A DNA stretch of 64,000 bases, from contig JAJEDN010000130.1 in assembly GCA_022821495.1 (NCBI GenBank), forward strand, positions 14,924 through 78,923. Direction: 5' to 3'. A program made the position numbers and the translations under genes. Shown piece by piece: positions 1 to 18,163 of the stretch. Within the stretch, counting starts at the first letter, position 1. The number at the start of each line of letters is the position of its first letter. Under the pieces are notes generated by a model. That model did no database searches and was not told the DNA's origin. It worked only from the letters and a program-made list of their open reading frames with translations. This DNA is from Candidatus Poribacteria bacterium (GTDB lineage Bacteria; Poribacteria; WGA-4E; WGA-3G).

Positions 1-1788
1 CGGCAATGCCTTGCGGGAGGTCTTCGCCAATGCCCACAAGAGAGCTGTAGTGTAAATTTGCTTCTCGCCTGCTGACAATTCTTCTTTTAATAGAGGGCGG
101 TTGTGGGCATCATAGAGCGTTACAGCAAAGGTTTCTGGGGTCAGTTCAACGCGTTTAATTCGATCTGGTTTGTGTGAAAATTGATTGAAACCTTCTACGA
201 TGGCATTGCCCAACGTAACAATTTTTGCCTGTGTGAGTTGTGCGGTGTACGAGGAAAGCACAGACTGTACGTTCTCCACCCGCTTTTGGCGTTGGATATG
301 TGCTTCCCCTAGCTGCCGGGTGTAACGTAGTTTATCCAATTTTCGCTCCGCCACTTCAAGTTGATACGATAGAGTCTGAATGGATTGTTGTGTATCTTGG
401 TACTGTTTACGCAGCTGCCCAAGTTTTTGGTTTAACGCTGACAGTTTCTCAACCAAAGGTTTCAAAATATCTTCGGCTGGTGCTTTCTGAAGAGCCTGTT
501 CGACCTCTTGCAGCTCCGCTTGTGTTGCTCTTAGTGCATCGTTCAATTCGCGAAATTCTTGCGGCACCTCATTAAGAGAAGCATCAATCCATTCTAACAG
601 ACGGGCGTATTCTGAAGGAGAGCGGTCGCGGATTTTTTTGAAACCCCGTAACGTTTCGGGACACTCAAGTTGTATTCTCAGGAGTGGTTCAATCTTAGCG
701 CGGACTGTTTCAATCTGTGGTACAGATAAGGATGCACCAGCCCAGAATTCCTCGGATGCCAAAGCCTCAAGTACCCCTGTATTTTGAGCTTTTAAGGCTT
801 GATCTCTTGTTTCCCACTCATCTAACTCTATCTCTTTAACAAGCCTCTCTCCTAATTGCTTGAGTAGCTCAGGGACCAAAGCAAACGGAAACAATGCCCC
901 ACACAAGTCTCGGATATCACTTTCAAATGCCTCAATATCAGCATGGAGTTGTTCCTGTCGCAGTTTTAGACTTTCTCGTTTTTCGGCATAACTACCGCCC
1001 TCGGCTGCGATGCGCGATTCTTGCCGGGCAATTTGGGCTTCTAACTTTGCAATTTGAGTGTGTAGTGATTCTGTGTGCTCCTGCATCTCCGCGAGCGATG
1101 ATGTAAGCGTGGTGATTTCTGTCTCTACCGTATTAATCTCTGCTTGCAAGGGTTCTGGACTGTCGCGTTTGACCAGACGGTTTGCGTAAATACGCAGATC
1201 CGATTGTAAGCGTTCTACTAAATTGAGTCCAAGCAGTGCTTTAATTGATTCAGCGAGATACAAGTCGTGACTGGAATCGTCCGCTAACTTCTGGATATCT
1301 TCACCATCAAAAAAGAAGAATTGTGATACGCTAATCGGGATAAGTTCCTCAACACGATCTTGCCAGTGTTCTGCATCGAATTCAGTATCCAGCCAGTTAT
1401 TTTCGGAGATTGTCAAATTTTCATTGGTGCTGCGGGGATTTGGGGTATCCTGTCGCCACGACCGTTCAACCTTGTACTGCTTTGTTTCCCGACCGTGTGC
1501 ATATTCAAATTCAAGCGACACCGAAGCATGGCTTAATGGCATTACAGAATTGGCATCGCGGTGAATCATTGCCGAGAGGTAATCATTATATTCGTTCTGG
1601 CTAACGCGGGGACCGAGTGCTCGTCTGCCGTAGAGACAGAGGCGAACCGAATCTAACAGCGTCGTTTTACCAGCACCATTCATCCCACCGATAAGGATTA
1701 TAGGGCCTTTACCATTCGCTGTAAGATGAACGCTCTGCTTACCGCGAAACAGACCAACATTATTGAGAGTAAGTTTGTGGAAGATCAT
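1..1788 (-). CDS. dndD: DNA phosphorothioation protein DndD (SMC/ABC-like ATPase), C-terminus beyond left window edge
   Basis: This ORF is absent from the track because it has no in-window stop. I checked all 596 minus-strand codons from ATG 1788 to base 1 and found no stop. N-terminus MIFHKLTLNNVGLF...ILIGGMNGAGKTTLLDSVRLCLYG carries a Walker A motif. The left end reads SAGEKQIYTTALLWALAKTS, an ABC-signature-like segment. The ATG overlaps the dndC stop (ATGA at 1785-1788). Confidence 0.85.
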   Translation of the reverse strand, partial: MIFHKLTLNNVGLFRGKQSVHLTANGKGPIILIGGMNGAGKTTLLDSVRLCLYGRRALGPRVSQNEYNDYLSAMIHRDANSVMPLSHASVSLEFEYAHGRETKQYKVERSWRQDTPNPRSTNENLTISENNWLDTEFDAEHWQDRVEELIPISVSQFFFFDGEDIQKLADDSSHDLYLAESIKALLGLNLVERLQSDLRIYANRLVKRDSPEPLQAEINTVETEITTLTSSLAEMQEHTESLHTQIAKLEAQIARQESRIAAEGGSYAEKRESLKLRQEQLHADIEAFESDIRDLCGALFPFALVPELLKQLGERLVKEIELDEWETRDQALKAQNTGVLEALASEEFWAGASLSVPQIETVRAKIEPLLRIQLECPETLRGFKKIRDRSPSEYARLLEWIDASLNEVPQEFRELNDALRATQAELQEVEQALQKAPAEDILKPLVEKLSALNQKLGQLRKQYQDTQQSIQTLSYQLEVAERKLDKLRYTRQLGEAHIQRQKRVENVQSVLSSYTAQLTQAKIVTLGNAIVEGFNQFSHKPDRIKRVELTPETFAVTLYDAHNRPLLKEELSAGEKQIYTTALLWALAKTSRKALP

Positions 1789-3191
1789 TGTTGGAAATCA
1801 CCATCATCCAAACCGGCACGGACTTCTTCTTCTGAACGCCAGTCCTCGTGGAAGATTTCATCAATTCGGGATTGTATGCCTGCGCGTCGGCTCATGCCAT
1901 CCATTTGCCGTTCTGTATCCAGTAATTTTGCGACAAGGGTAACCGGAATCCCTTTTTCGTTGCAGACCGCTGCCAAGATTTGTTTATCTTTCTCAGTAAA
2001 AGAGGTTGTGTCATCAACAATCCAATCCCGATCCCCGACTATTTCTGCGTAAATTTGGGGGACAGCATCTTGCCAATCTTGGCGTTCGGTTCGCCAGATT
2101 TTACGGATTTCCTCTAACTCATCGTCAGTAATGAGTTTCGTACCCGGGTCAGGTCCATCTTGGCGCACCTGCTGTTGGGTTGTGAGAAGTTTTTCTAACA
2201 GTTCCTTACAAAATTCCAATGTATAGGGCCCATGAACGAGTTTATTATTCAGGATCGTAACTTGTCCGTTTCGGCGCCGATGTTCACGTATCTCCGGTTT
2301 CTTCTCCGGATCCTGAGTTTCAGCAAGAAAATCACGAAATTCAAGCAGCGGTAGCATCCAGTTCTCACCGTTATCAATGAGACCTTCCATCGCTTTGTCT
2401 TTTGTTACGACGGTACAAGTCCAGCACCCAAAACGACTGTTTCCGCAAGATGGCGTTGTCTCGTCAACCACCAGCGGACACTCACCTTGCGCGCTCGTGT
2501 TCCGATAGAGTGTTACCAATTGCCGATTATCGCCTCCCCACGGCGATGGATTGGATAATAGGTACATCCAAACGTCTTCCATTGTAAAATCGACAACAGG
2601 TGTATAAACAAAGGCATTAGGCAGCGTCGTATGTCTTGAGAGGAGCGAATTTTTCATACGGTGCAAACTCAAGACTTGATCACGTGTTGCACTTTCACCT
2701 TTACGTACCCCGAGAACCATAATAACTTCGCCGTGTTCAGAAGCTTTATCTAAAATAAACCGGTTTGCGGGCTGTATCTTCATCCGGTCGGTGCACCATC
2801 GGAAACGACTATAGGGAGCAGGATAACCTTTGCCGATGAGATTAACCCAGAAAGTATCCTCAGTTTTCGGGCGGACGAGAGCTGTCTGAAACGGCATCTC
2901 CTCTTCGTTTGCAGTCGCCTCAATCCGATCCAAGGTGCCAGTAATGTAGCTAACAATCACCGGGGTCTCAACGAGGGTATCCGACGATACCACGTAAATA
3001 GGGTATTTTCGTTGTTCTGGCGGCAGCTCGCCAAGCGCATACCAGACGAGTTGGAGTGCTGTCGTTGAATCTTTTCCACCGCTGTATCCGATAACCCAAG
3101 GGCGCGCATTTCCAAGATAGACTTCTTGAATTTCACGATGGATATCGTCAAGATCGCGCGAGTTGAAAATGCTATAAGGTGCCTCTGGCAT
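1785..3191 (-). CDS. dndC: DNA phosphorothioation sulfurtransferase DndC (PAPS-reductase/ATP-pyrophosphatase fold)
   Basis: 468 aa. SGGKDS PP-loop motif (YSGGKDSTTAL). Cys cluster CGNSRFGCWTC is typical of the DndC Fe-S site. It is translationally coupled to dndD. Confidence 0.9.
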   Translation of the reverse strand: MPEAPYSIFNSRDLDDIHREIQEVYLGNARPWVIGYSGGKDSTTALQLVWYALGELPPEQRKYPIYVVSSDTLVETPVIVSYITGTLDRIEATANEEEMPFQTALVRPKTEDTFWVNLIGKGYPAPYSRFRWCTDRMKIQPANRFILDKASEHGEVIMVLGVRKGESATRDQVLSLHRMKNSLLSRHTTLPNAFVYTPVVDFTMEDVWMYLLSNPSPWGGDNRQLVTLYRNTSAQGECPLVVDETTPSCGNSRFGCWTCTVVTKDKAMEGLIDNGENWMLPLLEFRDFLAETQDPEKKPEIREHRRRNGQVTILNNKLVHGPYTLEFCKELLEKLLTTQQQVRQDGPDPGTKLITDDELEEIRKIWRTERQDWQDAVPQIYAEIVGDRDWIVDDTTSFTEKDKQILAAVCNEKGIPVTLVAKLLDTERQMDGMSRRAGIQSRIDEIFHEDWRSEEEVRAGLDDGDFQQ

Positions 3192-3436
3192 AAATCTTGC
3201 CCTTTCTAAGAAAAATATGTATATGGAAGATACAACGTTTGGAGTTTGGATGCTGGTACATCAGTATATCACAAATCCGATTTATGTCTACACTTATCAA
3301 TAAATTTTAAGTAGGATCAGCGATAATATAGTGTCCGGGTGGCAATGTTACAGATTCTTTTGGCATGTGAGCTTGCTCCTTTCAAACGAAATTTATTTGA
3401 AAAATAGTGTGACTTATTGTCGGGAAATAAGACAAA

Positions 3437-3847
3437 TTACCGGCACAGATTGATTCCCATCATCGAAAAATGCTGGTCAAAAGCAAAAGCCTCGCGGATG
3501 TTACTCTCTCGACACACTACAAAACTTGTGCAATCCGTAAAAGATAACCTTGCAGAGTTACACTGGCGAAAAAGTACTGTTGCTTTCTCAAACAGGTCTT
3601 TATCAATATCTACAACGGTTAGGCCCCCTGCTATTTCAGCGTTTCCAATAAACTCAAGGAACGCAACGGCTACTGAATGGTTTGTATCATATCTGAGGCG
3701 AGTTACGGTTTCATCAATCACGTAATCCGTGGTTAAAAGTTGGGTTTCTCCGTCTCGCAAACTGTTGTAAATTGCCATAGCTTCGCGATGGTGCAGGTCA
3801 TTCCGCTTGTAAATAGCAATCCACGCACCAGTATCAACAAAAATCAT
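3437..3847 (-). CDS. PIN-domain ribonuclease (VapC-like toxin fold)
   Basis: 136 aa. N-terminus MIFVDTGAW. All four conserved PIN acidic residues are present (D5, E46, D105, D124). The start ATG overlaps the stop of the upstream 605-aa gene (ATGA at 3844-3847). Confidence 0.8.
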   Translation of the reverse strand: MIFVDTGAWIAIYKRNDLHHREAMAIYNSLRDGETQLLTTDYVIDETVTRLRYDTNHSVAVAFLEFIGNAEIAGGLTVVDIDKDLFEKATVLFRQCNSARLSFTDCTSFVVCRESNIREAFAFDQHFSMMGINLCR

Positions 3848-5661
3848 TTTTTTGACTGCAATTCATAGATGACTTCATCGTGATTGACAGAAGCATCAGT
3901 TGTGCCGGAATCGACAGACCCAACCATTTCATCAAGGATAGAATAAGCATTTTTAATTTCATTTCTCTTAATGATTTCACGGATTCGTCCACTACTTACA
4001 AGCACAATGAAGTAGTCAAGCGTGTCTGAGGCACTGTTTAGGATATTGGCAAAAACATGCCGTAAACTCTGGTTTTCAATGTCAAAATGCTCCGCTTTTT
4101 TCAAATAGGTTCGTCCTTTCCGATGTGCACTCCCACTTGATCGTAGGTCCTGAAGCTTCCGTAGAAAAGCGATATGAACGTCAGCACCTTCAAGATCGTT
4201 CAAATGTAATGCAGCTCCAAGAAGTGCAATACCGCTTTTATTTTTAAATTCTTCCTGTTTCTCAAAAGGAATCAATTTTCTCAGCGATTTCTCATTTAAG
4301 GAATCAATTAGTATCTTAGTAAGGCTTAACACCATGGCATCAAAATCCCGTTGTTCGTCGGTAGCAGGAATTCTCAAAGATTGTAAGTGGTGTGCATCGG
4401 CAGTGTGCAAGGGCAGCAACCACTGCCAACCGAGTTGCTTCTGACTCGCCTTTTGTAAATCATTATAACGTTGTTTAAATATGTGTTCCGGTCTGTCTGA
4501 ATTTGTGAATTGAGCCCCAAGTTGACGTGCAAAATACGTTTTACTCACACCACCCGTTGGTGGAATGTTATATTGGTTCCAGTGTTTCTGTTCACCGAAC
4601 GGCAAATCACGCCCAAGGTCTCCTAACCAGGCACAGACTATGTCCTCGTGATGATTATCAATATACACACTCCATAAACTACCGCATCGAAGGATAGAGT
4701 CCTCTACCGTATATTTGCTGGGTTCATGGTAATACTTGTCTAAGACTTTTTTACGGAAGTGAACGGGTGTTAGATAACTCGGTGCCTCTTCATCCACACC
4801 GCGAATATTCCCAGGATCCGCTGGTGTTTTGAGTTCATCTGGATTAGACGTGTAGATAATTTCATCTCCGATCTCATTGACATCAATAATAAATGAAGCA
4901 TACTCCTGCCCAGATACCTCAGCGAAGGGCCAGAAACCGCTCTTAGTCTTTGGTAACGGTTCGACGATCCGTTTTCCCACTAATCGACTAAATGCTCTAT
5001 GGTTAGTAATGCCATCAAGGTCCCCATAGCGTTGCATCCAACACATTAGCTTATCTGGTCTTTGCCTATCGTTGTCACTTTCCGTGAATCCAAGTTCTTC
5101 TAATGAATGTGTTGACAATTCGCTAAAAATGAATTGGATAGCAAGATGCATCTCCTTGATTGCCAAGAATTGACGAATTTCTTTGAGCCGAATTTGTATG
5201 CAGTCTGATTTGACAACTGCAACAGTTTCTTCTTCATTCCCATCTTCACTGATTTTGATGTATTGATCCGTTTTTCTATCGTGATAGAGATTGTGGAAAA
5301 GGCGAAATTCTTCGGATATTTCCCTATAGTCGTCGCGCACTCTATGAAAACTTCTGCCAATGATTAGGGGTTCAACCCCGTTGTCAACGCCATAACGGAG
5401 GTATTCGCGTACCTCTCTGCCACCTTTATTAGAGATCATACCACTCGGAATGTCCTGTGAAAATTCCATATCCCACGTTGAAACGGAAAGTGATTTTTTA
5501 ATCTGAGCAGATGGTATCAGTGCACAATAGATATAATGTTTGCTGTATTCTTCTGTAGGTTCTTGATATACAGTGAGCATCTCGTTCAACTTCATATCGC
5601 GTTGCATGTGCTGCAGGGTCTGTGCTTGTGATAGTCGTCTTTTATCTCTATCAATACTCAT
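3844..5661 (-). CDS. Uncharacterised 605-aa protein with a putative C-terminal HEPN-like segment
   Basis: Track ORF is 3844..5727. I prefer ATG 5661 (MSIDRDKRR) because AAGGAG lies 7 nt upstream. I recognise no family for the N-terminal ~480 aa. The C-terminal segment IAFLRKLQDLRSSGSAHRKG fits the HEPN R-x4-6-H pattern. Confidence 0.6.
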   Translation of the reverse strand: MSIDRDKRRLSQAQTLQHMQRDMKLNEMLTVYQEPTEEYSKHYIYCALIPSAQIKKSLSVSTWDMEFSQDIPSGMISNKGGREVREYLRYGVDNGVEPLIIGRSFHRVRDDYREISEEFRLFHNLYHDRKTDQYIKISEDGNEEETVAVVKSDCIQIRLKEIRQFLAIKEMHLAIQFIFSELSTHSLEELGFTESDNDRQRPDKLMCWMQRYGDLDGITNHRAFSRLVGKRIVEPLPKTKSGFWPFAEVSGQEYASFIIDVNEIGDEIIYTSNPDELKTPADPGNIRGVDEEAPSYLTPVHFRKKVLDKYYHEPSKYTVEDSILRCGSLWSVYIDNHHEDIVCAWLGDLGRDLPFGEQKHWNQYNIPPTGGVSKTYFARQLGAQFTNSDRPEHIFKQRYNDLQKASQKQLGWQWLLPLHTADAHHLQSLRIPATDEQRDFDAMVLSLTKILIDSLNEKSLRKLIPFEKQEEFKNKSGIALLGAALHLNDLEGADVHIAFLRKLQDLRSSGSAHRKGRTYLKKAEHFDIENQSLRHVFANILNSASDTLDYFIVLVSSGRIREIIKRNEIKNAYSILDEMVGSVDSGTTDASVNHDEVIYELQSKK

Positions 5662-5861
5662 AATGTTCTCCTTTCTGTCAGCATGTAGAATATGTAACTT
5701 GAAGTATAACACATTTTCCGCTTGCATTACAAACCGATTTCGTCTAAACTTTTATGGCAATTACGGTAGATCGGACAATTAACGATACAGTGTTGATCGG
5801 CGCGCTTCCAAAACGCACCTACCGGTAGGGATCTACAAGTTTGTTATGAGGAGGTACGCGT

Positions 5862-6950
5862 ATGACAATTCGAGTCGGTATTGTGGGTACGGGTGGTATT
5901 TCGCGTGCACACCAGCGGGCTTATACGCAAGTCGGTGGTTTCGAGATCATCGCTGTGTGCGACATCATCAAGCGTAAAGCGAACGAGGCTGCCGATAAGT
6001 GGGGTGTCCCCAGAAAACACGTCTTCACAAGCTACAATAAGATGCTTGAGATGGGCGAAATTGATACAGTCAGCGTTTGCACTTACAACCAAGGGCATCG
6101 CCGTCCGACAGTGGCAGCGTTGAATGCTGGTAAGCACGTCTTTTGTGAAAAACCGATGGCGGCGACACTCCCAGATGCCACCGCTATGGTGCGAGCCGCG
6201 AAAGCGTCAGGCAAAATCTTGCAAATCGGTATCCACAGCACTTTTAATCCGAGACTCCAATTCGCTAAGAAGGTGATCGATTCAGGACTGCTCGGCGACA
6301 TCTATTATGCTGAATCTACAGGAGGGAGTCGCCGCAGGAATCCGGGACGTACATTCATCTACAAAAAGACTGCAGGTGCTGGGGCGATCGTAGATGTCGG
6401 TGTCTACAATATGCACGATTCGTTGTTTGCGATGGGCTACCCGAAACCGGTGCGTGTCTCCGCAATTACCGAGGATTACATCTCTCAGCAAGATCCAAGA
6501 TTTAAGGGGATCATGGACGTTGAAGAGTTCGGTGTCGCATGGGTCCGATTTGACAATGGTGGTGTGATGGTATTCAAAATCTCTTGGGTAGTACATCAGG
6601 ATTCGTTGGGTCCGAGTTTTTGTCTCGGTAAAGAAGCAGGTATTTCTCTGAACGGCCCCGTTGTCTATGCCGATACTTATACAGATGACCTCAAGAAACT
6701 CGTCAAATCCGAAGGACTCACCGCGGAAGCGAACCCACCGGAAGGGATGACGACGATCCAGTTCTCTGGATTCCCAGAGGTCGATGTCTGGCAGGCACAG
6801 ATAACAGCGTTCCGTGAAGCAGTCAAAGCGGATGCTCCGTCGCCGATACTCCCAGAGGGTGTCCTACTCACGAATGTAATTATGGATGGGATGTTCCGTT
6901 CACATGAGACAGGGAAAGAGGTTGCGGTGAAAGTGCCAGAGATTGAATAG
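5862..6950 (+). CDS. Gfo/Idh/MocA family NAD(P)-dependent oxidoreductase (paralog 1)
   Basis: 362 aa. N-terminal Rossmann motif VGIVGTGGISRAH. EKP motif (FCEKPMA). GAGGAGG Shine-Dalgarno upstream. Confidence 0.85.
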   Translation: MTIRVGIVGTGGISRAHQRAYTQVGGFEIIAVCDIIKRKANEAADKWGVPRKHVFTSYNKMLEMGEIDTVSVCTYNQGHRRPTVAALNAGKHVFCEKPMAATLPDATAMVRAAKASGKILQIGIHSTFNPRLQFAKKVIDSGLLGDIYYAESTGGSRRRNPGRTFIYKKTAGAGAIVDVGVYNMHDSLFAMGYPKPVRVSAITEDYISQQDPRFKGIMDVEEFGVAWVRFDNGGVMVFKISWVVHQDSLGPSFCLGKEAGISLNGPVVYADTYTDDLKKLVKSEGLTAEANPPEGMTTIQFSGFPEVDVWQAQITAFREAVKADAPSPILPEGVLLTNVIMDGMFRSHETGKEVAVKVPEIE

Positions 6951-7080
6951 TTGTTGGTTGTCGGAAACCGTTAGCCGTCAGCAATTGACCATTAGCAATC
7001 AGTCGTCAGCGGAGAAGGCGTGTTTTATTGTTTACATATTTTTCTATTTCACCTTAAATTTATTATAAGGAGACAACAAC

Positions 7081-8166
7081 ATGACTGTCCGGGTTGGTAT
7101 TATTGGTACAGGTGGTATTTCACGGGCACACCGGAGCACCTATGAGAAAGTCGGTGGTTTCGAGATCGTCGCTGTCTGCGACATCATCAAAAGCAAGGCG
7201 AACCAAGCCGCTGACGAGTGGGGTGTCCCCAGAAAAAACGCCTTTTCAAGTTACAACAAGATGCTCGAAATGGACGGACTCGATGCAGTGAGTGTCTGCA
7301 CCTACAATCAGGGGCATCGGCGACCTACCGTCGCAGCACTGAACGCTGGGAAACACGTCCTTTGTGAGAAACCGATGGCAGCCACGCTCCCTGACGCGAC
7401 AGCTATGACGCGAGCCGCAAAGGCATCCGGCAAAATCTTACAAATCGGTCTCAATCCGACATTTGATCCGAGGATTCAATTCATAAGAAAGGCGTTTGAC
7501 GCAGGATTGTTCGGCGACATCTACTACTCTGAATCTGCAGGATGCCGACGCCGCGGGAATCCGGGGCATACATTCATCTACAAAAAGACCGCAGGTGCCG
7601 GGGCAACCGTCGATATCGGTGTCTACAACATGCACGCCTCGCTATTTGCGATGGGTTACCCGAAACCCGTGCGTGTCTCCGCAATTACCGAGGATTACAT
7701 CTCTCAGCAAGATCCAAGATTTAAGGGGATCATGGATGTTGAAGAGTTCGGTGCGGCGTGGGTGCGGTTCGAGAATGGGGGTGTGATGGTATTCAAAATC
7801 TCTTGGGCGGTGCATCAGGACTCACTCGGTGGAAACTTCCATCTTGGAACGAAAGCGGGGTTCTCGTTGGGTGGACCGGTGATTTATGCCGACGCGTATG
7901 ACGGTGATCTCAAGAAGTTTGTCGAAGCGGAGGGATTAACAGCCGAACCGAACCCGCCGGAAGGAATGACGACGATCCAGTTCTCTGGATTTCCGCAATC
8001 TGATAACTGGGCATCACAAATGATCGCGTTCCGTGAAGCCGTCAAAGCGGACGCACCATCGCCGATACCACCGGAGGGTGTTCTACTCACGAATGTGATT
8101 ATGGACGGTATCTTCCGATCGCATGCAGCCGGGAAAGAGGTCGCAGTGAGCGTGCCGCAGATTTAA
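7081..8166 (+). CDS. Gfo/Idh/MocA family NAD(P)-dependent oxidoreductase (paralog 2)
   Basis: 361 aa. By eye it is very similar to the preceding gene. Same VGIIGTGGISRAH and CEKPMA motifs. AAGGAG Shine-Dalgarno upstream. Confidence 0.85.
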   Translation: MTVRVGIIGTGGISRAHRSTYEKVGGFEIVAVCDIIKSKANQAADEWGVPRKNAFSSYNKMLEMDGLDAVSVCTYNQGHRRPTVAALNAGKHVLCEKPMAATLPDATAMTRAAKASGKILQIGLNPTFDPRIQFIRKAFDAGLFGDIYYSESAGCRRRGNPGHTFIYKKTAGAGATVDIGVYNMHASLFAMGYPKPVRVSAITEDYISQQDPRFKGIMDVEEFGAAWVRFENGGVMVFKISWAVHQDSLGGNFHLGTKAGFSLGGPVIYADAYDGDLKKFVEAEGLTAEPNPPEGMTTIQFSGFPQSDNWASQMIAFREAVKADAPSPIPPEGVLLTNVIMDGIFRSHAAGKEVAVSVPQI

Positions 8167-11347: not shown

Positions 11348-13678
11348 CTACTGCTTCTCCTGCCTCTTCATGAGTTCGTCAAGTTGCTGGCGTGCATGCG
11401 CAACGATAACGTTTTTGGGGTAATCAGCGATAAGCGTGGTATAAGTGGAAGTAGCATTCGCAAAATCGGCGTTTTCTCGATGAATCTCGGCGATGTACAT
11501 CAACGCTTTCGCTGCCATAGGACTTTCTTGTGCGATAACTGCTTCGTAGGCATTGATTGCGTCATTATCTTTACCCGTTCCACTGTAGATATTACCGATA
11601 AGCATCCACACATCATCGACGATAGTGGCTTCCGGATAGACATCAAGCGTCCCCTGACACTGTTGTAGTGCCGCATCTGTCTGCCCGCTCAATAGGAGTT
11701 GTACAGCGGTGGCATAGTCCGTAAGCGGCACTTTAAAGTAATCTGGATGATTCTGGATGAGGACAATGCGTTCAAGCGCGTCATTTGTCAGTTTGTCAGA
11801 TTTTGAGATCTTGATGACAAGATTGTATGCTTCGATAGCCTGTTCAAAGTCACCCGCAAAGAAATAGGTGTCACCTATCAGTTTTCGGGCAGGGGCGCGG
11901 AAACGATTGGTACGGCTGGCGATCGGTTCAAGGACTTCCCGCGCGAGTGTATAACGTTTCAACAAAACATGGCATTCGCCTAAACCCAATTGGACTTCCG
12001 TTAATTGGGTGACAGTTAAGCGTTGGGTGAGCAACGGTTCTAAAGTCATCTGAGCAAACTTCGGTGCCCGAAGTCCCCGCAATTGCAACTGTCCCAACAA
12101 TAACTTGTCCTTCACCGAAGCATTTCCTGTGCTAAGCTGCTCTTTCAAAAGTGTTACCGCTGCATCCCACTGCTCCATCTTTTGGTAGAGTGCTGCAAGC
12201 TTGGATCGGGTGCTTCTAACGCGACCCCTATCGGTCGAACCTGCTATCAATGCTTTATAGAAATCAGTAGCAGCCTGAAAGTTTTCGTTACGTTCTAATA
12301 TCCGCGCGTATTTTTCAAGCGTTGTGTCGGTGTGTGCTGGATAAGACCGATGGAGATATGTGAACGTTTCCAGGGCTTGCGTTGCCTTCCCCGCATGGAA
12401 AAGGAGCTCACCCAACGTCATAACGATATGCGGATTATGCCCAGATTGGACTCGCTGCTGCTGAAGCACAGTGATAAGTTTCTCCCGAAGGGGTTGGTGT
12501 GCTGCACCCTCATAAATCTCAAGCATCTCACGCCAGATGAATTCTCTTTGATTCCGTCCAAGACCAATACGTTGTAGCGCGTCAATATAAACGTCTGCGG
12601 CTTCTTGAATTTTACCCTGAATTTTATATGCCGATGCTAACTGTGTATAAAGATAACTATCCTGTGGGCTCAACTGAATGGCTTGCTGATACGCAGCGAT
12701 CGCTTCTGGATACATTTTATGAGAGAGATAGATTGAGCCGAGTTGTTGATGGCGATCAGATCGCTTTAAGTTTCCCGCTACAAGCTTCTCCCACTCTGCT
12801 ACTGCTTGTTCGGTTTTACCGGTCTCGGCATAAAGTTCACCTAACTTCTTACGAAGATTGGTATTTTCTGGATGCCGTCTAATCGCTTCTTGATAGAGTT
12901 CGAGTGCCTTCGGATAATCATCTTGTTGTTGGTAAAGTTCGGCTAATTGTTCCAGTAAGTTGATGTCGTCAGGATACTGTTGCATCCGTTCTTGAATCAG
13001 TTTCTCAGCTTCCGCATAACGTTGATTTGTGATGTAAAGCTGAATGAGTCTGTTGGTTGCAGTCGTGCGGTAGGGTGAAGTTTGGAAGTTGTCAAGGAAA
13101 TACTTGTAACTTTCCATCGCTTCTTCAGATCTTCCCTCCGCTTGTTGGTATTGACCGACGAGATAGGCAGCTGTCGCAGCTGCAGAGGTGCCAGGATGTT
13201 GATTGAGAATTTGTTTACACTGCAATATCGCTTCCCGAAATTGATAGCGGTTCCAGTGAAGATTTGCCAAGCGATGTACCGCTTGCGTGGCGTAAGAACC
13301 GCCCGGGTTTTCATCAATAACCTCTCTGAAGATACGCTGTGCCGCGGCATCCTCACCCGTTTTGGCGTAACTCTGACCTAACATAAGGCGAATCGAGTCT
13401 TTTGGACTCTGGCGGAGCGGCGTATACGAACCATCAGGATTGGCAATACCTTTTTCAAGCAACGCTTCGTACGCCTTAATCGCCTCCGCGTACCGACGCT
13501 CATGGTAATGATCATGTGCCGCTTCAACTGAGTCTAACGAGGGATGAACTTCTTGGACAGTAGGGGCACGTTGAACTTGTGCGAAAGTGTATGAATTATC
13601 TGCGATTGTTATTGTGATAAAAAGCAGTGGTATTAGAACGGTAAGAAAAATGGCGTGTCGGTGCATCACGGTCTCCAT
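11348..13678 (-). CDS. Secreted multi-TPR repeat protein
   Basis: 776 aa. N-terminal hydrophobic signal or anchor. TPR-like A-x-x-x-Y/AxxxF periodicity runs throughout. Confidence 0.75.
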   Translation of the reverse strand: METVMHRHAIFLTVLIPLLFITITIADNSYTFAQVQRAPTVQEVHPSLDSVEAAHDHYHERRYAEAIKAYEALLEKGIANPDGSYTPLRQSPKDSIRLMLGQSYAKTGEDAAAQRIFREVIDENPGGSYATQAVHRLANLHWNRYQFREAILQCKQILNQHPGTSAAATAAYLVGQYQQAEGRSEEAMESYKYFLDNFQTSPYRTTATNRLIQLYITNQRYAEAEKLIQERMQQYPDDINLLEQLAELYQQQDDYPKALELYQEAIRRHPENTNLRKKLGELYAETGKTEQAVAEWEKLVAGNLKRSDRHQQLGSIYLSHKMYPEAIAAYQQAIQLSPQDSYLYTQLASAYKIQGKIQEAADVYIDALQRIGLGRNQREFIWREMLEIYEGAAHQPLREKLITVLQQQRVQSGHNPHIVMTLGELLFHAGKATQALETFTYLHRSYPAHTDTTLEKYARILERNENFQAATDFYKALIAGSTDRGRVRSTRSKLAALYQKMEQWDAAVTLLKEQLSTGNASVKDKLLLGQLQLRGLRAPKFAQMTLEPLLTQRLTVTQLTEVQLGLGECHVLLKRYTLAREVLEPIASRTNRFRAPARKLIGDTYFFAGDFEQAIEAYNLVIKISKSDKLTNDALERIVLIQNHPDYFKVPLTDYATAVQLLLSGQTDAALQQCQGTLDVYPEATIVDDVWMLIGNIYSGTGKDNDAINAYEAVIAQESPMAAKALMYIAEIHRENADFANATSTYTTLIADYPKNVIVAHARQQLDELMKRQEKQ

Positions 13679-13732: not shown

Positions 13733-16700
13733 TCATCCAGATAGACAAGTGCTAACTAGCTCCTGTAGCGTTTGGGTTTCGAGTTCTGATTTAAGTTTTT
13801 TAACTTTTTCAGGATTTCCGAGTTTTACCTCGACTGCGGTGATAGCATCTTTTACAGCATTTGCATAGAGCGGCGTTGTTGCCCCGATTTCAGTGTAGAT
13901 ATGCTCGACTTTAAGGAAAAGGTGCAAACTCTGTTCTAATTTGCCTTCGGCGCAAGCCAATCTTCCGAATTGGTGGAGCGAATCTGCAATTTCGCTGAGT
14001 TTTCCGATTTTGTTGCGATGCTGGAGGCTTTCTATGTAATATTGCCTCGCTTCGTTATACCTGCCCTGACGAAGTGCTATTTTCCCAAGACTATCAAGGA
14101 GATAGGGGAGGTTTGTGCCAGAGGCAGAAAGTTCACGGGCAAGATGCAGGCTCTCTGTATAGTAGCGTTTTGCATCTTCATCGCTATTTTGCTGAAACGC
14201 AATTAACCCTAAATGGCTCAGCGAATAGGAACATCCCTGTTTATCGCCTAATTCCTGTTGAATCTGGAGGCTTTCGGTGTGGTAACGATGTGCTTCATCA
14301 TACGCGGTTTGGTGATAGGCAATCAGCCCAAGGTGATTGAGTGAGGTAGCGATGCCGCGTTTATCAGCAAGCTCTCGTCGGATTTCTAAGCTTTCGGTAT
14401 GATAATGTTTTGCTTCCTCACGTAACCTTTGACGACTTGCTGTTTTCCCAAGGTTATTGAGAGCATAGGCGATACCGCGTTTGTCGTTGAGTTCGCGTGC
14501 GAGACGTAAACCTTCTATATACTGGATTTTTGCTTCTTCAAAACGGCCCCGGTGGTAGGCAGTGAGTCCTAAATTATTCAGGGCGAAAGCGATCTGCCAC
14601 TTATCGTCTAATATCTTCGCAATCTCTAAGGCTTCCGCGAAATGTGTGTCCGCTTCATCAGGTTTTTCTTGATACCTCGCGATAATACCGAGCCGGTTTA
14701 ATGCTTCGACTACGCCGGGTTGATGCCCCACAGTTCTGAAAGTTTGCAGGGCATCTTTGCACAATTGCCAAGCGGTTTGACACTCCTGTCGTGTATTATA
14801 GAATCTAGCAAGGGCTACCTGAATATTAGCTATTGTAAGTCGTAGCAATTTTTCGTCTGTTTCTAAAGCAGTTCCCGATTTCTGGTTCTGCAGAAGGTAT
14901 TGTAATTCGATCTTCGCCTGTTTCAACCAAGTCAATCCTTCGTTCCATAATCCTCGGATGTAGAAAAACTGGGAAAGTGCAACGGCAAGCTGCCCGAACA
15001 AGAGCCATTCGGTATTCTCTCGTGTAAATCCGAAAGCGGCGCGGAAATTGTCGAGTTCAAGTGCCATTTCTGAAAGCGCATAGACCTGTTCGGGGCCCTG
15101 TAGTTTTTCATTTTGTTGTTGTGCTAACCTGAGATAATACCGAGCATGTGCCTCCCGGAATTCGGCAAGATGCTTTTCCCGCAGATACAATTGCAATGGT
15201 ACCGAGAGATGGTAGCGGGTTCGTGTCAGATGTGTTTCCGTAATAAGTAGAGATTTATCATGTAAACTAAAAATGATATCTATCGTCTCTATTTCTGCAG
15301 TCGGTGTCTTATCTGTTGTAAGGGGGCATACTGAACCCCAAATCATTTCGACGGCTTCCAAGAAAAATCCGCCTGAAAACAAGGCAAGCTGGCAGAGGAA
15401 CCACTGTTCATGTGGTTCCAGAAGTTCATAAGACCAGGCGATCACAGCGTTAAGAGTTTGATGTCTCATCGGTACATCTTGATTCCTCGTTGAGAGGAGT
15501 GTGGAACGTTTGTCGCTCGATGAGTCGTCGAGGGTCATCTTTAGGCGTTCGCGGATGTGTTGTGGTGTCATCCCTTGGACGCGCGCCGCGGCGAGTTCAA
15601 TCGCAAGGGAGAGCCCATCAACCAAGCGACAGATCTCACCAATCACTTCGGCATTGTCCGGTGTTAATTGGAAATTCGGTGCGACTGCCTCTGCGCGTTC
15701 GCGAAACAGTTGGACGCTTTCCGAGTGTTGAAGGACTTCATAGTCAGCATCTACAGATGGAATAGATAACGGGGGTACCCTATATCTCTGCTCGCCTGCG
15801 ATTTTTAACGATTCTCGTGAAGTGACTAAACAGTGCAGCTTCGGACACCGAAGGAGCAAGGTCTTGACATCTGAACTCGCTTCTATCAAGTGTTCAAAGT
15901 TATCCAATATTAATAAGAGGGTTTTCCGTGAAAGATATGTAATAACTTGTTCAATGGTATCCAGTGGAAGCGCAAGAACCGTTGCAATTTCTGTAATAAC
16001 GTGCGCCGGATGCACCAGATCAGCTAACGGAACGAACCATACCCCATCTGGGTAAGCGTTGAGGAGCTCTGTCCCCACCTGTAGGGCGAGACGCGTTTTT
16101 CCGATGCCGCCTGGACCAGTGAGCGTCACGAGCCGTGACTGTCCATCGGCAAGATACTTCACGATACGTCGGATTTCAGCTTCTCTGCCGATAAAGTTGT
16201 TCATTGGAGTTGGCAGGTTATTGGGGAGATTATCGAGCGTTTGCAGGGGCGGAAATTTACTTTCTAGTTCTGGAGTAGTAGAATCATCTATAGGTTTTCC
16301 ATGTTGCCCTTGCATTGTATTGTCTTGTGTCTGTTTCCCAAAGATTTCAGCCCATCTCTTTTCGCCAATAATCTTGAAAATAGAGGGCTGCGGCGCGAGA
16401 AACTGAAAAATCGCTTCTGGTCGTTGAATGTGCTTCAGACGATGCTCACCGAGGGCAATAAAACTTCCAGGCGGGAATTGCGTTTTGACAAGTTCATAAG
16501 TCACAGTAGAGAGCAAGATCTGCCCGCCGTGCCCGGCATCGGTAATTCGTTTAGCAAGGTTCGCAGCCATTCCGTGATATTGGTTATCTAACAGGAGCAT
16601 ATCTCCCGTGTGAATGCCAATGCGAACGCGCAAATGCCCGACTTCTTCATGCCACTGATGCGCGTTGAGTACCAACTGTACTTCAAGGGCGCATGTAACG

Positions 16701-16930
16701 GCATCCTTTGCTGTAGGAAAAACAAAGAAGAAGGCATCGCCTTCGTTGTGGATTTCCGTCCCGCCCCATGCCGTTTTTGCTGCTCGCAAAATCGCGTTAT
16801 GGGCATTGATAACCTCCGCCATGATCGCATTATCGTGTTTTTCCCAAAGCAGCGTTGACCCTTCGATGTCAGTAAACATCAAGGTAAGCGTTCCGACAGG
16901 CAAATGTGGCGGTGAATTACATGCTGACAC
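13733..16930 (-). CDS. STAND-type signalling protein: class III adenylate/guanylate cyclase + NB-ARC/AAA ATPase + TPR array
   Basis: 1065 aa. Cyclase motifs are FTDIEGST and NEGDAFFFVF. Walker A is LTGPGGIGKTRLA. The C-terminal TPR_12-like units repeat (NNLG/NHLG...Y..AL.I). Confidence 0.8.
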   Translation of the reverse strand: MSACNSPPHLPVGTLTLMFTDIEGSTLLWEKHDNAIMAEVINAHNAILRAAKTAWGGTEIHNEGDAFFFVFPTAKDAVTCALEVQLVLNAHQWHEEVGHLRVRIGIHTGDMLLLDNQYHGMAANLAKRITDAGHGGQILLSTVTYELVKTQFPPGSFIALGEHRLKHIQRPEAIFQFLAPQPSIFKIIGEKRWAEIFGKQTQDNTMQGQHGKPIDDSTTPELESKFPPLQTLDNLPNNLPTPMNNFIGREAEIRRIVKYLADGQSRLVTLTGPGGIGKTRLALQVGTELLNAYPDGVWFVPLADLVHPAHVITEIATVLALPLDTIEQVITYLSRKTLLLILDNFEHLIEASSDVKTLLLRCPKLHCLVTSRESLKIAGEQRYRVPPLSIPSVDADYEVLQHSESVQLFRERAEAVAPNFQLTPDNAEVIGEICRLVDGLSLAIELAAARVQGMTPQHIRERLKMTLDDSSSDKRSTLLSTRNQDVPMRHQTLNAVIAWSYELLEPHEQWFLCQLALFSGGFFLEAVEMIWGSVCPLTTDKTPTAEIETIDIIFSLHDKSLLITETHLTRTRYHLSVPLQLYLREKHLAEFREAHARYYLRLAQQQNEKLQGPEQVYALSEMALELDNFRAAFGFTRENTEWLLFGQLAVALSQFFYIRGLWNEGLTWLKQAKIELQYLLQNQKSGTALETDEKLLRLTIANIQVALARFYNTRQECQTAWQLCKDALQTFRTVGHQPGVVEALNRLGIIARYQEKPDEADTHFAEALEIAKILDDKWQIAFALNNLGLTAYHRGRFEEAKIQYIEGLRLARELNDKRGIAYALNNLGKTASRQRLREEAKHYHTESLEIRRELADKRGIATSLNHLGLIAYHQTAYDEAHRYHTESLQIQQELGDKQGCSYSLSHLGLIAFQQNSDEDAKRYYTESLHLARELSASGTNLPYLLDSLGKIALRQGRYNEARQYYIESLQHRNKIGKLSEIADSLHQFGRLACAEGKLEQSLHLFLKVEHIYTEIGATTPLYANAVKDAITAVEVKLGNPEKVKKLKSELETQTLQELVSTCLSG

Positions 16931-16960
16931 AGCATTGTCCCTCTTGATTTGGGTTTGGCA

Positions 16961-18163
16961 TTAAAGCATGGCGAGACTGGTGAGGAATGCCATGCCGTAA
17001 ATCATGCAATTTTCGTCAATATCAAATTGTGGATGATGACACATATTCACGATACCTTTCTCCGCATTTCCGGCACCGACCATCACGAAGCAGGCAGGAA
17101 TTTCTTGCGAATAGCAACCGAAATCCTCACCACCGAGTATCGGCGGCACCGGAAATATAAGATTGTCTTCGCCAACTAAGCCTCGCGCCGCAGATGTCGC
17201 TGCAACAACACAAGGTTCATGGTTATATGTCACCGGACATCCTTCTTGATACTTGAAAGTATACGCAGCGTTGTTGGCGTCCGCGAATCCCGCAAGGAGA
17301 CGCTCAAGTTGCTCTCTGACGCGTGTCTGCACCGATTTTTCGAGCGTCCGGACCGTGCCACCTATGAGCACTTGCGGCGGAATAACATTCAGGGCTGCAC
17401 CTGTAAGACCTTCTTGCAAGTTCGCATCTCCACCATGCAACTGCGTAATACTGACGACCGCTGAATCCAAAGGATTAACATTTCTTGCCACAATCGACTG
17501 CACGGCTGTCACAAACTGCGCACCAATAACAATTGGATCCACAGTCAGATGCGGAAACGCAGCGTGCCCACCCTTACCCGTGAGTGTAATCCGAAACGTA
17601 TCAGACTGGGCAAGCATCGGACCCACACACGTGGCGTATTCGCCGACACCATAGAGCGGAAAGACGTGGATACCATAGATTTCGTCAACATCTTCTAACA
17701 CACCATCAGCCATCATTGCCTCTGCACCACCCGGGAAGACCTCTTCACTCGGCTGAAAGACAAAACGAACATGCGTTTTAAGGCTGCTGCGGAGATGTGA
17801 GAGAATCCGCGCCGTTCCAATAAGCATAGCCGTGTGCGCATCGTGTCCACATAGATGTGCTTTGCCCTCCACCTTCGATTTAAAAGGCACTTCCGTCAAC
17901 TCTTGAATTGGGAGCGCGTCCATGTCCGCACGTAAGGCGATACGTTTTGTCGCACCCGGCACCTCTAAATCCCCAACGACACCCGTTCTACCAACACCTG
18001 TTTTGACTCGGATGTCGAGCGCATGCAACGCATCAGCCGCAATACCTGCCGTCCGGTGCACATCAAACCCGATTTCAGGGTGTTGATGAATATCGCGTCG
18101 GATGGCGACAATATCATTAAAATGGTGGCGACACTCTTGAAAAATTAGATCTTTATTCATCAA
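16961..18163 (-). CDS. M20/M25/M40 family amidohydrolase (N-acyl-amino acid amidohydrolase/hippurate hydrolase-like)
   Basis: 400 aa. Motifs ALRADMDALP, HLCGHDAHTAML and GGEDF are typical of the M20D subfamily. Confidence 0.85.
   Translation of the reverse strand: MMNKDLIFQECRHHFNDIVAIRRDIHQHPEIGFDVHRTAGIAADALHALDIRVKTGVGRTGVVGDLEVPGATKRIALRADMDALPIQELTEVPFKSKVEGKAHLCGHDAHTAMLIGTARILSHLRSSLKTHVRFVFQPSEEVFPGGAEAMMADGVLEDVDEIYGIHVFPLYGVGEYATCVGPMLAQSDTFRITLTGKGGHAAFPHLTVDPIVIGAQFVTAVQSIVARNVNPLDSAVVSITQLHGGDANLQEGLTGAALNVIPPQVLIGGTVRTLEKSVQTRVREQLERLLAGFADANNAAYTFKYQEGCPVTYNHEPCVVAATSAARGLVGEDNLIFPVPPILGGEDFGCYSQEIPACFVMVGAGNAEKGIVNMCHHPQFDIDENCMIYGMAFLTSLAML

Follow-up and report, generated by a model that had tools for sequence, protein, structure and literature searches.

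The window analyzed here is a stretch of 64,000 nucleotides from Candidatus Poribacteria bacterium (NCBI GenBank assembly GCA_022821495.1, contig JAJEDN010000130.1, positions 14,924 to 78,923), which contains two overlapping genes encoding a protein of 605 amino acids (aa) and a PIN domain protein of 136 aa. The genes of this pair and the dndC and dndD genes that follow them are all on the minus strand (Table 1). Comparison with relatives points to a toxin-antitoxin (TA) module of the VapBC type in which a large, defense-type protein has probably taken the place of the small antitoxin. A first-pass annotation, made from the sequence alone, had described the two genes as overlapping by ATGA on the same strand and as lying 245 bp upstream of dndC-dndD; the overlap was confirmed in the sequence, and the gene coordinates give a gap of 245 bp between the end of the PIN gene and the start of dndC.

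The open reading frame (ORF) of the large protein extends from an ATG at position 5661 to a stop codon ending at position 3844. An in-frame ATG farther upstream, at position 5727, would yield a 627-aa reading, but 605 aa is the correct length because every homolog of the protein begins at the motif MSIDxDKKRLSQ. The 4-bp overlap between the large gene and the PIN gene is kept in 38 of 40 orthologous pairs and is therefore more than a chance arrangement, indicating that translation of the PIN gene is coupled to that of the large gene. The pair is poor in GC (0.418, compared with 0.471 on average across the window; only 1.1% of segments of the same size reach so low a value), which bears out the AT-richness that the first-pass annotation had judged by eye. 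The GC content at third codon positions is likewise 0.38 to 0.41 in the pair, compared with 0.52 to 0.58 in the flanking oxidoreductase and aconitase (housekeeping) genes.

Table 1. Features of the large gene-PIN gene pair and of adjoining sequence, in window coordinates
Feature	Position	Strand	Basis
Gene for 605-aa protein (putative defense-type core plus antitoxin-type tail)	3844..5661	-	ORF, ribosome binding site, homologs, AlphaFold model
Residues 1-345, N-terminal region, mostly beta strands	4627..5661	-	Secondary structure of model
Residues 346-558, all-alpha C-terminal domain, HEPN-like candidate	3988..4626	-	Helices in models
Codons R507-S-S-G-S-A-H513, R-x5-H motif	4123..4143	-	Conservation in 136 sequences; helix-end/loop position
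Residues 559-605, VapB-type tail: helix 559-581, then disordered TDASVNHDEVIYELQSKK	3847..3987	-	Small-antitoxin homology; model
Gene for PIN domain (VapC-like) nuclease, 136 aa	3437..3847	-	PF01850, E 1e-11; tetrad invariant
ATGA stop/start overlap of the 605-aa protein gene and the PIN gene	3844..3847	-	Read from sequence
Shine-Dalgarno AAGGAG of the 605-aa protein gene	5668..5673	-	Read from sequence; 6-nt spacer to ATG
Promoter-like site TTGTAA-18-TATACT with TG, upstream of the pair	5703..5732	-	Consensus scan only, not evidence of function
Promoter-like site TAGACA-16-TATACT with TG, PIN-dndC gap	3263..3290	-	Consensus scan only
19-codon remnant MPKESVTLPPGHYIIADPT of an ORF of ~100-113 aa	3307..3366	-	Followed by a stop; rest deleted in window
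dndC, neighbor outside the module	1785..3191	-	TIGR03183, E 1e-169; PADLOC
dndD, neighbor outside the module	1788..1	-	Translation; cut by left window edge

The second protein of the pair is a PIN domain (Pfam PF01850), and its acidic tetrad, which the first-pass annotation had read as intact, is invariant in 32 orthologs (D5, E46, D105, and D124). For the 605-aa protein no family could be named at first sight, and none was found by searching: there is no match in Pfam, NCBIfam, or PADLOC other than a sub-threshold AF2331-like match, and searches of PDB sequences, whether with the protein alone or with a profile of 136 sequences, returned nothing below an E value of 0.25. More than 2,400 proteins match the 605-aa protein in a collection clustered at 90% identity, and 2,328 representatives at 50% identity match the family profile at an E value of at most 1e-3. 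Family members that carry a name in their source are called "hypothetical," and a plasmid search returned just 13 distant matches, all "hypothetical protein." Most members are ~540 to 560 aa long and lack a PIN partner, and their match to the profile ends near position 550.

An AlphaFold model of the 605-aa protein, built from an alignment of 136 diverse members, is of high confidence (predicted local distance difference test [pLDDT], 94.2; predicted template modeling score, 0.87) and divides the protein into a beta-rich N-terminal region, an all-alpha domain, and a C-terminal tail. Residues 582 to 605, at the end of the tail, have pLDDT values of 45 to 58, whereas the rest of the protein is above 90; such a disordered end is what would be expected of a segment that folds on binding. 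A Foldseek search of PDB and BFVD with the full model gave no match below an E value of 0.09. No DNA-binding family was detected in the protein by Pfam or NCBIfam, and the model consists of the beta-rich and helical domains.

The origin of the tail was traced through metagenomes, which were searched with an alignment of the PIN protein, and the ORF ending at each PIN start was examined. The related PIN proteins recovered are 34 to 63% identical to that of the window. A full-size large protein precedes the PIN gene in only two of these loci (L097 and L099); nearly all of the others are preceded by an ORF of 73 to 110 aa. The N termini of these short ORFs match RHH_3 (E 1e-8) or AF2212-like (E 1e-11) domains, with weaker AbrB-like and DUF2281 matches, and their C termini align with residues ~560 to 605 of the large protein and share with it the motif ...TDASVNHDxxIY. 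The likeness can be seen by comparing the tail end of L094, ...EEGYAILDELVGFCESNRTDASINHDTIIYELRSKK, with that of the window protein, ...KNAYSILDEMVGSVDSGTTDASVNHDEVIYELQSKK; in an alignment of 18 tails the H, D, and Y of HDxxxY are invariant. In VapBC modules, the toxin is bound and inhibited by the C-terminal portion of the antitoxin. Judged by this homology, the 605-aa protein ends in a VapB-type C-terminal peptide of ~45 residues and as a whole would thus be a stand-alone defense-type core fused to a VapB toxin-binding peptide. The large protein occupies the position normally taken by the antitoxin, directly upstream of the PIN gene with the 4-bp overlap, as had been remarked in the first-pass annotation. 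The suggestion made there of a TA-like module whose antitoxin or sensor component is giant gains support from the tail homology and from the way in which the tail tracks the PIN gene across genomes.

A scan of one genome per species yielded 80 loci with a homolog of the large protein. These fall into a group in which the match extends to residue ~604 (tailed) and a group in which it stops at ~560 (tailless), the tailed clade being ~600 aa long, with ~45 extra C-terminal residues compared with its relatives of ~550 aa; one tailed locus, L015, was scored as tailless by the cutoff because its alignment ended at residue 599. A PIN gene lies directly downstream in 40 of the 42 tailed loci with enough sequence, compared with 0 of 35 tailless loci. 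The association is strong (Fisher p ~2e-18, not corrected for phylogeny), a value that implies more independent events than is realistic, given that the tailed clade probably has a single origin. Tailless proteins come from Proteobacteria, cyanobacteria, Planctomycetota, Desulfobacterota, Chloroflexota, Methanosaeta, and others, whereas tailed proteins were found in Poribacteria, Latescibacterota, Caldilineaceae, and Nitrospinota in the scan and in Gemmatimonadota in a separate search. The phyla of the tailed group are typical of marine sponge microbiomes; if that habitat holds for these genomes, the confinement of the tailed form to metagenome-assembled genomes of these groups suggests that the fused module has spread horizontally within it. 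One Poribacteria metagenome-assembled genome (CAXXUA01) carries both a tailed copy with a PIN gene (L021, 66% identity) and a tailless copy without one (L053, 55% identity), so the two forms coexist as paralogs.

The two genes decay unequally. In five tailed relatives the PIN gene is deleted, frameshifted, or interrupted by a stop codon, and in all five the large ORF is intact. The PIN gene is lost in L010, just its first 13 codons are left in L016, and just its last 20 codons are left in L071; L027 has an in-frame stop within the gene, and in L012 a T5-to-T6 frameshift directly follows the start codon. Wherever a tailed locus offered enough sequence, an intact PIN gene was never seen beside a broken large gene. 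This asymmetry fits the direction of loss that TA logic would allow, in which the presumed toxin can go first. In the Gemmatimonadota loci L001 to L003 (positions 12201 to 12407), the PIN gene is followed by an overlapping ORF of 67 to 68 aa with a weak RelB-like match, which could be a second antitoxin-like gene.

The C-terminal domain of the core had been proposed to carry the catalytic signature of HEPN RNases, and the motif itself stood up well. The sequence LRSSGSAHRKG is present in the 605-aa protein, and neither R507 nor H513 varies among 24 close homologs. Across 136 members down to 31% identity, H513 remains invariant, R507 is conserved to at least 90%, and K515 and G516 hardly vary. 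In the AlphaFold models R507 closes the helix formed by residues 493 to 510, and H513 lies in the loop that follows. In HEPN domains the Rx4-6H motif lies where core helix 3 ends and the loop leading into helix 4 begins (Anantharaman et al., PMC3710099), and the modeled R507-x5-H513 appears to occupy this canonical active-site position. The fold is less clear. With a separate model of residues 372 to 605 (pLDDT 90.7), the Foldseek matches of highest probability were the HEPN proteins 1wwp and HepT (6m6u), at E values of ~1 that are not significant; the match to 1wwp had a probability of 0.77, an E value of 0.9, a TM score of 0.54 on the target, and a root mean square deviation of 5.6 Å. What stands of the proposal is thus the family-wide conservation of R-x5-H, its position, and the rank of HEPN proteins among the structural matches, and what does not is a match of significance by profile or by fold. 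On balance of the models and the motif, a HEPN-like nature of the core C-terminal domain is probable.

The gene neighborhoods of the family suggest a role in defense. At least one defense-type gene lies on the same strand next to the pair in 21 of 44 tailed loci: a Type ISP-like/IIG methyltransferase of ~1,030 to 1,080 aa in 10 loci (Type_ISP_C, E 1e-100), an AAA_15 PD-T4-4_A-like ATPase with a 163-aa protein in 9, a Uma2/PDC-S03 protein in 6, and dndC in 4. Among 102 proteins encoded beside the tailless relatives, the Pfam families that recur most often are MmeI-type and type I restriction-modification (R-M) components, with 3 proteins each.

Several of the methyltransferase genes are directly upstream of the large gene (L030, L034, L063, L065, L072, L075, and others). 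Their products match just the coupler, methyltransferase, and target recognition part of a 1,646-aa Type IIG model, and they match a class of ~1,024 aa over its full length. Possibly these are modification or sensor enzymes that lack a nuclease and act together with the pair.

Upstream of the pair and divergent from it are two tandem, paralogous genes for GFO/IDH/MocA-type oxidoreductases (positions 5862 to 6950 and 7081 to 8166 on the plus strand, 362 and 361 aa). The same genes flank the pair in ~19 Poribacteria relatives, which places it at a conserved chromosomal site, with the GFO/IDH/MocA genes on one side and housekeeping genes on the other, at which dnd occurs in some genomes and not in others. 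On the other side of the pair, a full ORF of ~100 to 113 aa without a Pfam match follows the PIN gene in the Poribacteria relatives L009, L012, L014, and L016, and it is found both with and without dnd. In the window it has been reduced to the stump MPKESVTLPPGHYIIADPT, which shares 83% identity with residues 1 to 18 of the ORFs in L009, L014, and L016. The scan that returned the promoter-like sites, which also covered terminators, was at background (8 sites, compared with 6.6 expected), so that these sites are a weak hint only, and an Rfam scan of window positions 1 to 8000 gave no match.

We judge it rather likely that the pair is a two-gene module derived from VapBC, in which the small antitoxin has been replaced by a defense-type protein bearing a VapB tail, and that it probably provides defense by abortive infection. 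The core of ~560 aa, which belongs to a family normally found as a stand-alone protein near R-M genes and in defense islands and which combines a beta-rich N-terminal region with an all-alpha domain containing a HEPN-type R-x5-H site, would have acquired at its end a toxin-binding peptide of ~45 residues of the VapB type. The PIN protein would be translated by coupling from the shared mRNA, and the tail, with its helix and its disordered ...TDASVNHDxxIY segment, would wrap around the PIN protein and keep it inactive. Should the large protein be triggered or degraded, or should its synthesis cease, as might happen during phage infection, the PIN protein would be freed and could cleave RNA, possibly together with the HEPN-like RNase of the core, leading to a stop in growth and to abortive infection.

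Several observations weigh against this explanation. As the tailed clade is probably monophyletic, the link between tail and PIN gene may stem from one fusion followed by retention and not from many events. The PIN gene has been lost in ~10% of the relatives with the large protein kept, so the PIN protein may be dispensable for the core function. The HEPN assignment is weak: the Pfam HEPN models match 0 of 49 C-terminal domains at E values up to 1, and the E values from Foldseek for the HEPN assignment are all at least 0.5. Finally, about half of the tailed loci, including those at the syntenic Poribacteria site, are without a recognizable defense neighbor.

A variant of the same explanation gives the core more weight. 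The core family of ~550 aa would be a stand-alone HEPN-type immune sensor-effector, and the tailed clade would have captured a VapC toxin by means of a borrowed VapB peptide, producing abortive infection by two nucleases in which release of the PIN protein serves as the readout of infection. We hold this variant tentatively, as a possibility that falls short of being the expected one.

Alternatively, the VapB tail and PIN gene could be a device of addiction only, that is, a selfish element for postsegregational killing that makes the large gene or its island hard to lose and has no role of the PIN protein in infection. The tailless relatives evidently function alone, the large gene is intact in the ~10% of tailed loci from which the PIN gene has been lost, the tail is derived from ordinary type II antitoxins, and the pair sits at a variable, low-GC spot, all of which would suit such an element. 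On the other hand, at least five phyla have kept the pair with its 4-bp overlap, the catalytic residues of the PIN protein are invariant, and a selfish add-on might be expected to turn over faster. We regard addiction as the sole function as rather unlikely; the addiction and abortive-infection readings are inseparable on these data, and both may hold.

It is improbable, though in keeping with some of the evidence, that the tail instead recruits the PIN protein as a second nuclease subunit of a standing co-effector complex in which the two proteins are activated together and the PIN protein is not inhibited. Both proteins keep catalytic residues of nuclease type, and coupled translation suggests a fixed stoichiometry. 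However, the tail has its homologs in canonical small antitoxins, whose tails serve for inhibition in VapBC, and decay is asymmetric, with the PIN gene lost and the large gene kept.

The first-pass annotation had also considered that the pair might sense phosphorothioate modification and act with dnd, which would make it a restriction or effector partner of DndCDE in place of DndFGH, PbeABCD, or SspE. The arrangement in the window invites this idea, since the pair adjoins dndCD on the same strand here and in L012, L014, L015, and L016, and no DndFGH, Pbe, or Ssp homolog was seen beside the dnd-linked pairs. The distribution, however, largely refutes it, and we consider a dedicated partnership very improbable. 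Of 44 tailed loci, 4 have dndC as a neighbor, and of 35 tailless loci, none does; the arrangement in which dndC-dndD(-dndE) comes after the pair is seen only in the four Poribacteria relatives named above (71 to 82% identity). No dnd gene occurs in the 7.5 kb downstream of the pair in its closest relative, L008 (91% identity), the locus P0083 has the same syntenic GFO/IDH/MocA site without dnd, and elsewhere the same pair lies beside unrelated systems. In two of the four dnd-linked relatives the PIN gene is defective, being frameshifted in L012 and deleted in L016. Neither the 605-aa protein nor the PIN protein has a PADLOC match to Dnd, Pbe, or Ssp restriction components at E values up to 1. 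Between the PIN gene and dndC lie the decayed ORF and a promoter-like site, and because of the latter, found by consensus scan only, dndCD may be a separate transcription unit. From its neighborhoods, the pair is best described as a self-contained module that lands in varied defense settings and not as a dedicated dnd partner. Least credible of all is that these are ordinary housekeeping or RNA-processing genes with no role in conflict: in many Poribacteria the pair is indeed syntenic between the GFO/IDH/MocA oxidoreductase and other metabolic genes, but its distribution across phyla is patchy with near-identical tails, its GC content is low, its genes occur within R-M and defense operons, and it shows repeated PIN decay and homology to antitoxin tails.

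The dnd genes themselves have some features of their own. Residues 402 to 447 of DndC match Pfam Sp-DndD (PF20306, E 6e-10) and, weakly, PADLOC PbeB, and from the C-terminal PF20306 match it appears that a small Dnd-associated protein is fused to DndC. In L014 (positions 14755 to 17797) and L015 (positions 14755 to 17319), convergent genes that encode ParB_N and HTH_ParB domains come after dndCDE, and beyond dndCDE these two loci also encode a 578-aa protein with a weak DndB-like match.

If the variant with a stand-alone immune sensor-effector is correct, the pair would be a natural case of a defense protein turned into a "smart antitoxin." On the favored VapBC-derived reading, it would illustrate a simple evolutionary route by which a TA pair can be wired into an immune sensor, the movement of a toxin-binding peptide of ~45 residues from a small antitoxin onto a defense protein. 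If the large protein does sense infection, it would offer a testable model of how a TA toxin is released in phage attack, an open question for most TA systems. The analysis also draws attention to a large family of proteins whose fold is predicted with confidence and yet finds no match, and which has no name apart from the "ApeA N-terminal domain" that UniRef gives to some members; it speaks against a tempting link of the pair to phosphorothioate (dnd) biology.

The UniRef label, "ApeA N-terminal domain-containing protein," is carried by three tailless relatives. ApeA is reportedly a defense system from the work of Gao et al. in 2020. It has been described as a single-protein HEPN anticodon nuclease defense system, and the ApeA proteins studied are predominantly helical, doughnut-shaped oligomers that cut tRNA anticodon loops (bioRxiv 10.64898/2026.01.26.701840). 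In an earlier definition, the ApeA-NTD1 domain comprises ~300 aa, mostly in beta strands, fused to a HEPN domain, and the family is embedded in R-M operons, in bacteria more than in archaea (Anantharaman et al. 2013, PMC3710099). The large protein resembles these in length (~550 to 600 aa) and in having an N-terminal region followed by an all-alpha domain with R...H; the mostly beta ApeA-NTD1 fits the beta-rich residues 1 to 345 of the model, and some members of the large-protein family are likewise within R-M operons and in bacteria more than in archaea. A direct relationship was tried and rejected: hhalign comparisons of the family, and of its C-terminal domain, with an ApeA alignment gave probabilities of 0.1 to 0.2%, and the PADLOC ApeA model matches Ec2ApeA (2e-12) and neither the window protein nor the seven family members tested. 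The motif of the studied ApeA, in an alignment of full-length homologs, is RxRNxxxH. Pfam returned no ApeA-family match (HEPN_Apea or ApeA_NTD1) for the labeled relatives, a negative that carries no weight because the Pfam copy used misses even Ec2ApeA, and the UniRef label was thus neither reproduced nor dismissed. Unlike the 605-aa protein, ApeA has no PIN partner and no antitoxin tail. The large-protein family is ApeA-like in architecture and context and is not a demonstrable member of ApeA.

Comparison with the HEPN toxins of TA and abortive-infection systems (HepT/MntA, AbiD/F, RnlA/LsoA, and PrrC) gives a similar picture. These toxins and the core have in common an Rx4-6H motif, placed by the models of the core at the helix end and loop start of a helical domain, and both are associated with R-M operons, but no significant match of sequence or fold connects them. 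Moreover, the HEPN-like protein of the pair is in the antitoxin position, unlike the HEPN toxins of TA systems.

The closest parallel is VapBC itself. The usual VapB antitoxin is ~70 to 100 aa long and has an N-terminal DNA-binding domain of the RHH, AbrB, PHD, or HTH type. The pair shares with VapBC a putative PIN toxin with four conserved acidic residues, a partner gene directly upstream with a 4-bp overlap, and a partner that ends in ~45 residues homologous to the tails of genuine small antitoxins encoded with related PIN proteins. It differs in that the partner has 605 aa and not 70 to 110 aa and in that the DNA-binding and dimerization domain has been replaced by a two-domain protein of ~560 aa that exists independently elsewhere, a replacement by which transcriptional autoregulation has probably been lost. 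No description of the large-protein family or of the VapB-tail fusion was found in the literature searched. Related forms of recombination are known. In the Panacea (PanA) hyperpromiscuous antitoxins, a toxin-neutralizing element has reportedly likewise been recombined with unrelated domains (PMC10440598), and TA components are also reported to occur within defense systems in the case of HicA and of RelE/ParE toxins (PMC10865869 and PMC11980606). The portable element here is a short C-terminal peptide, predicted to bind the PIN protein, on a complete stand-alone protein of defense type. By its homologies, and with a predicted family fold that has no solved relative, the pair would be a VapBC-type module with an unprecedentedly large antitoxin derived from a defense protein.

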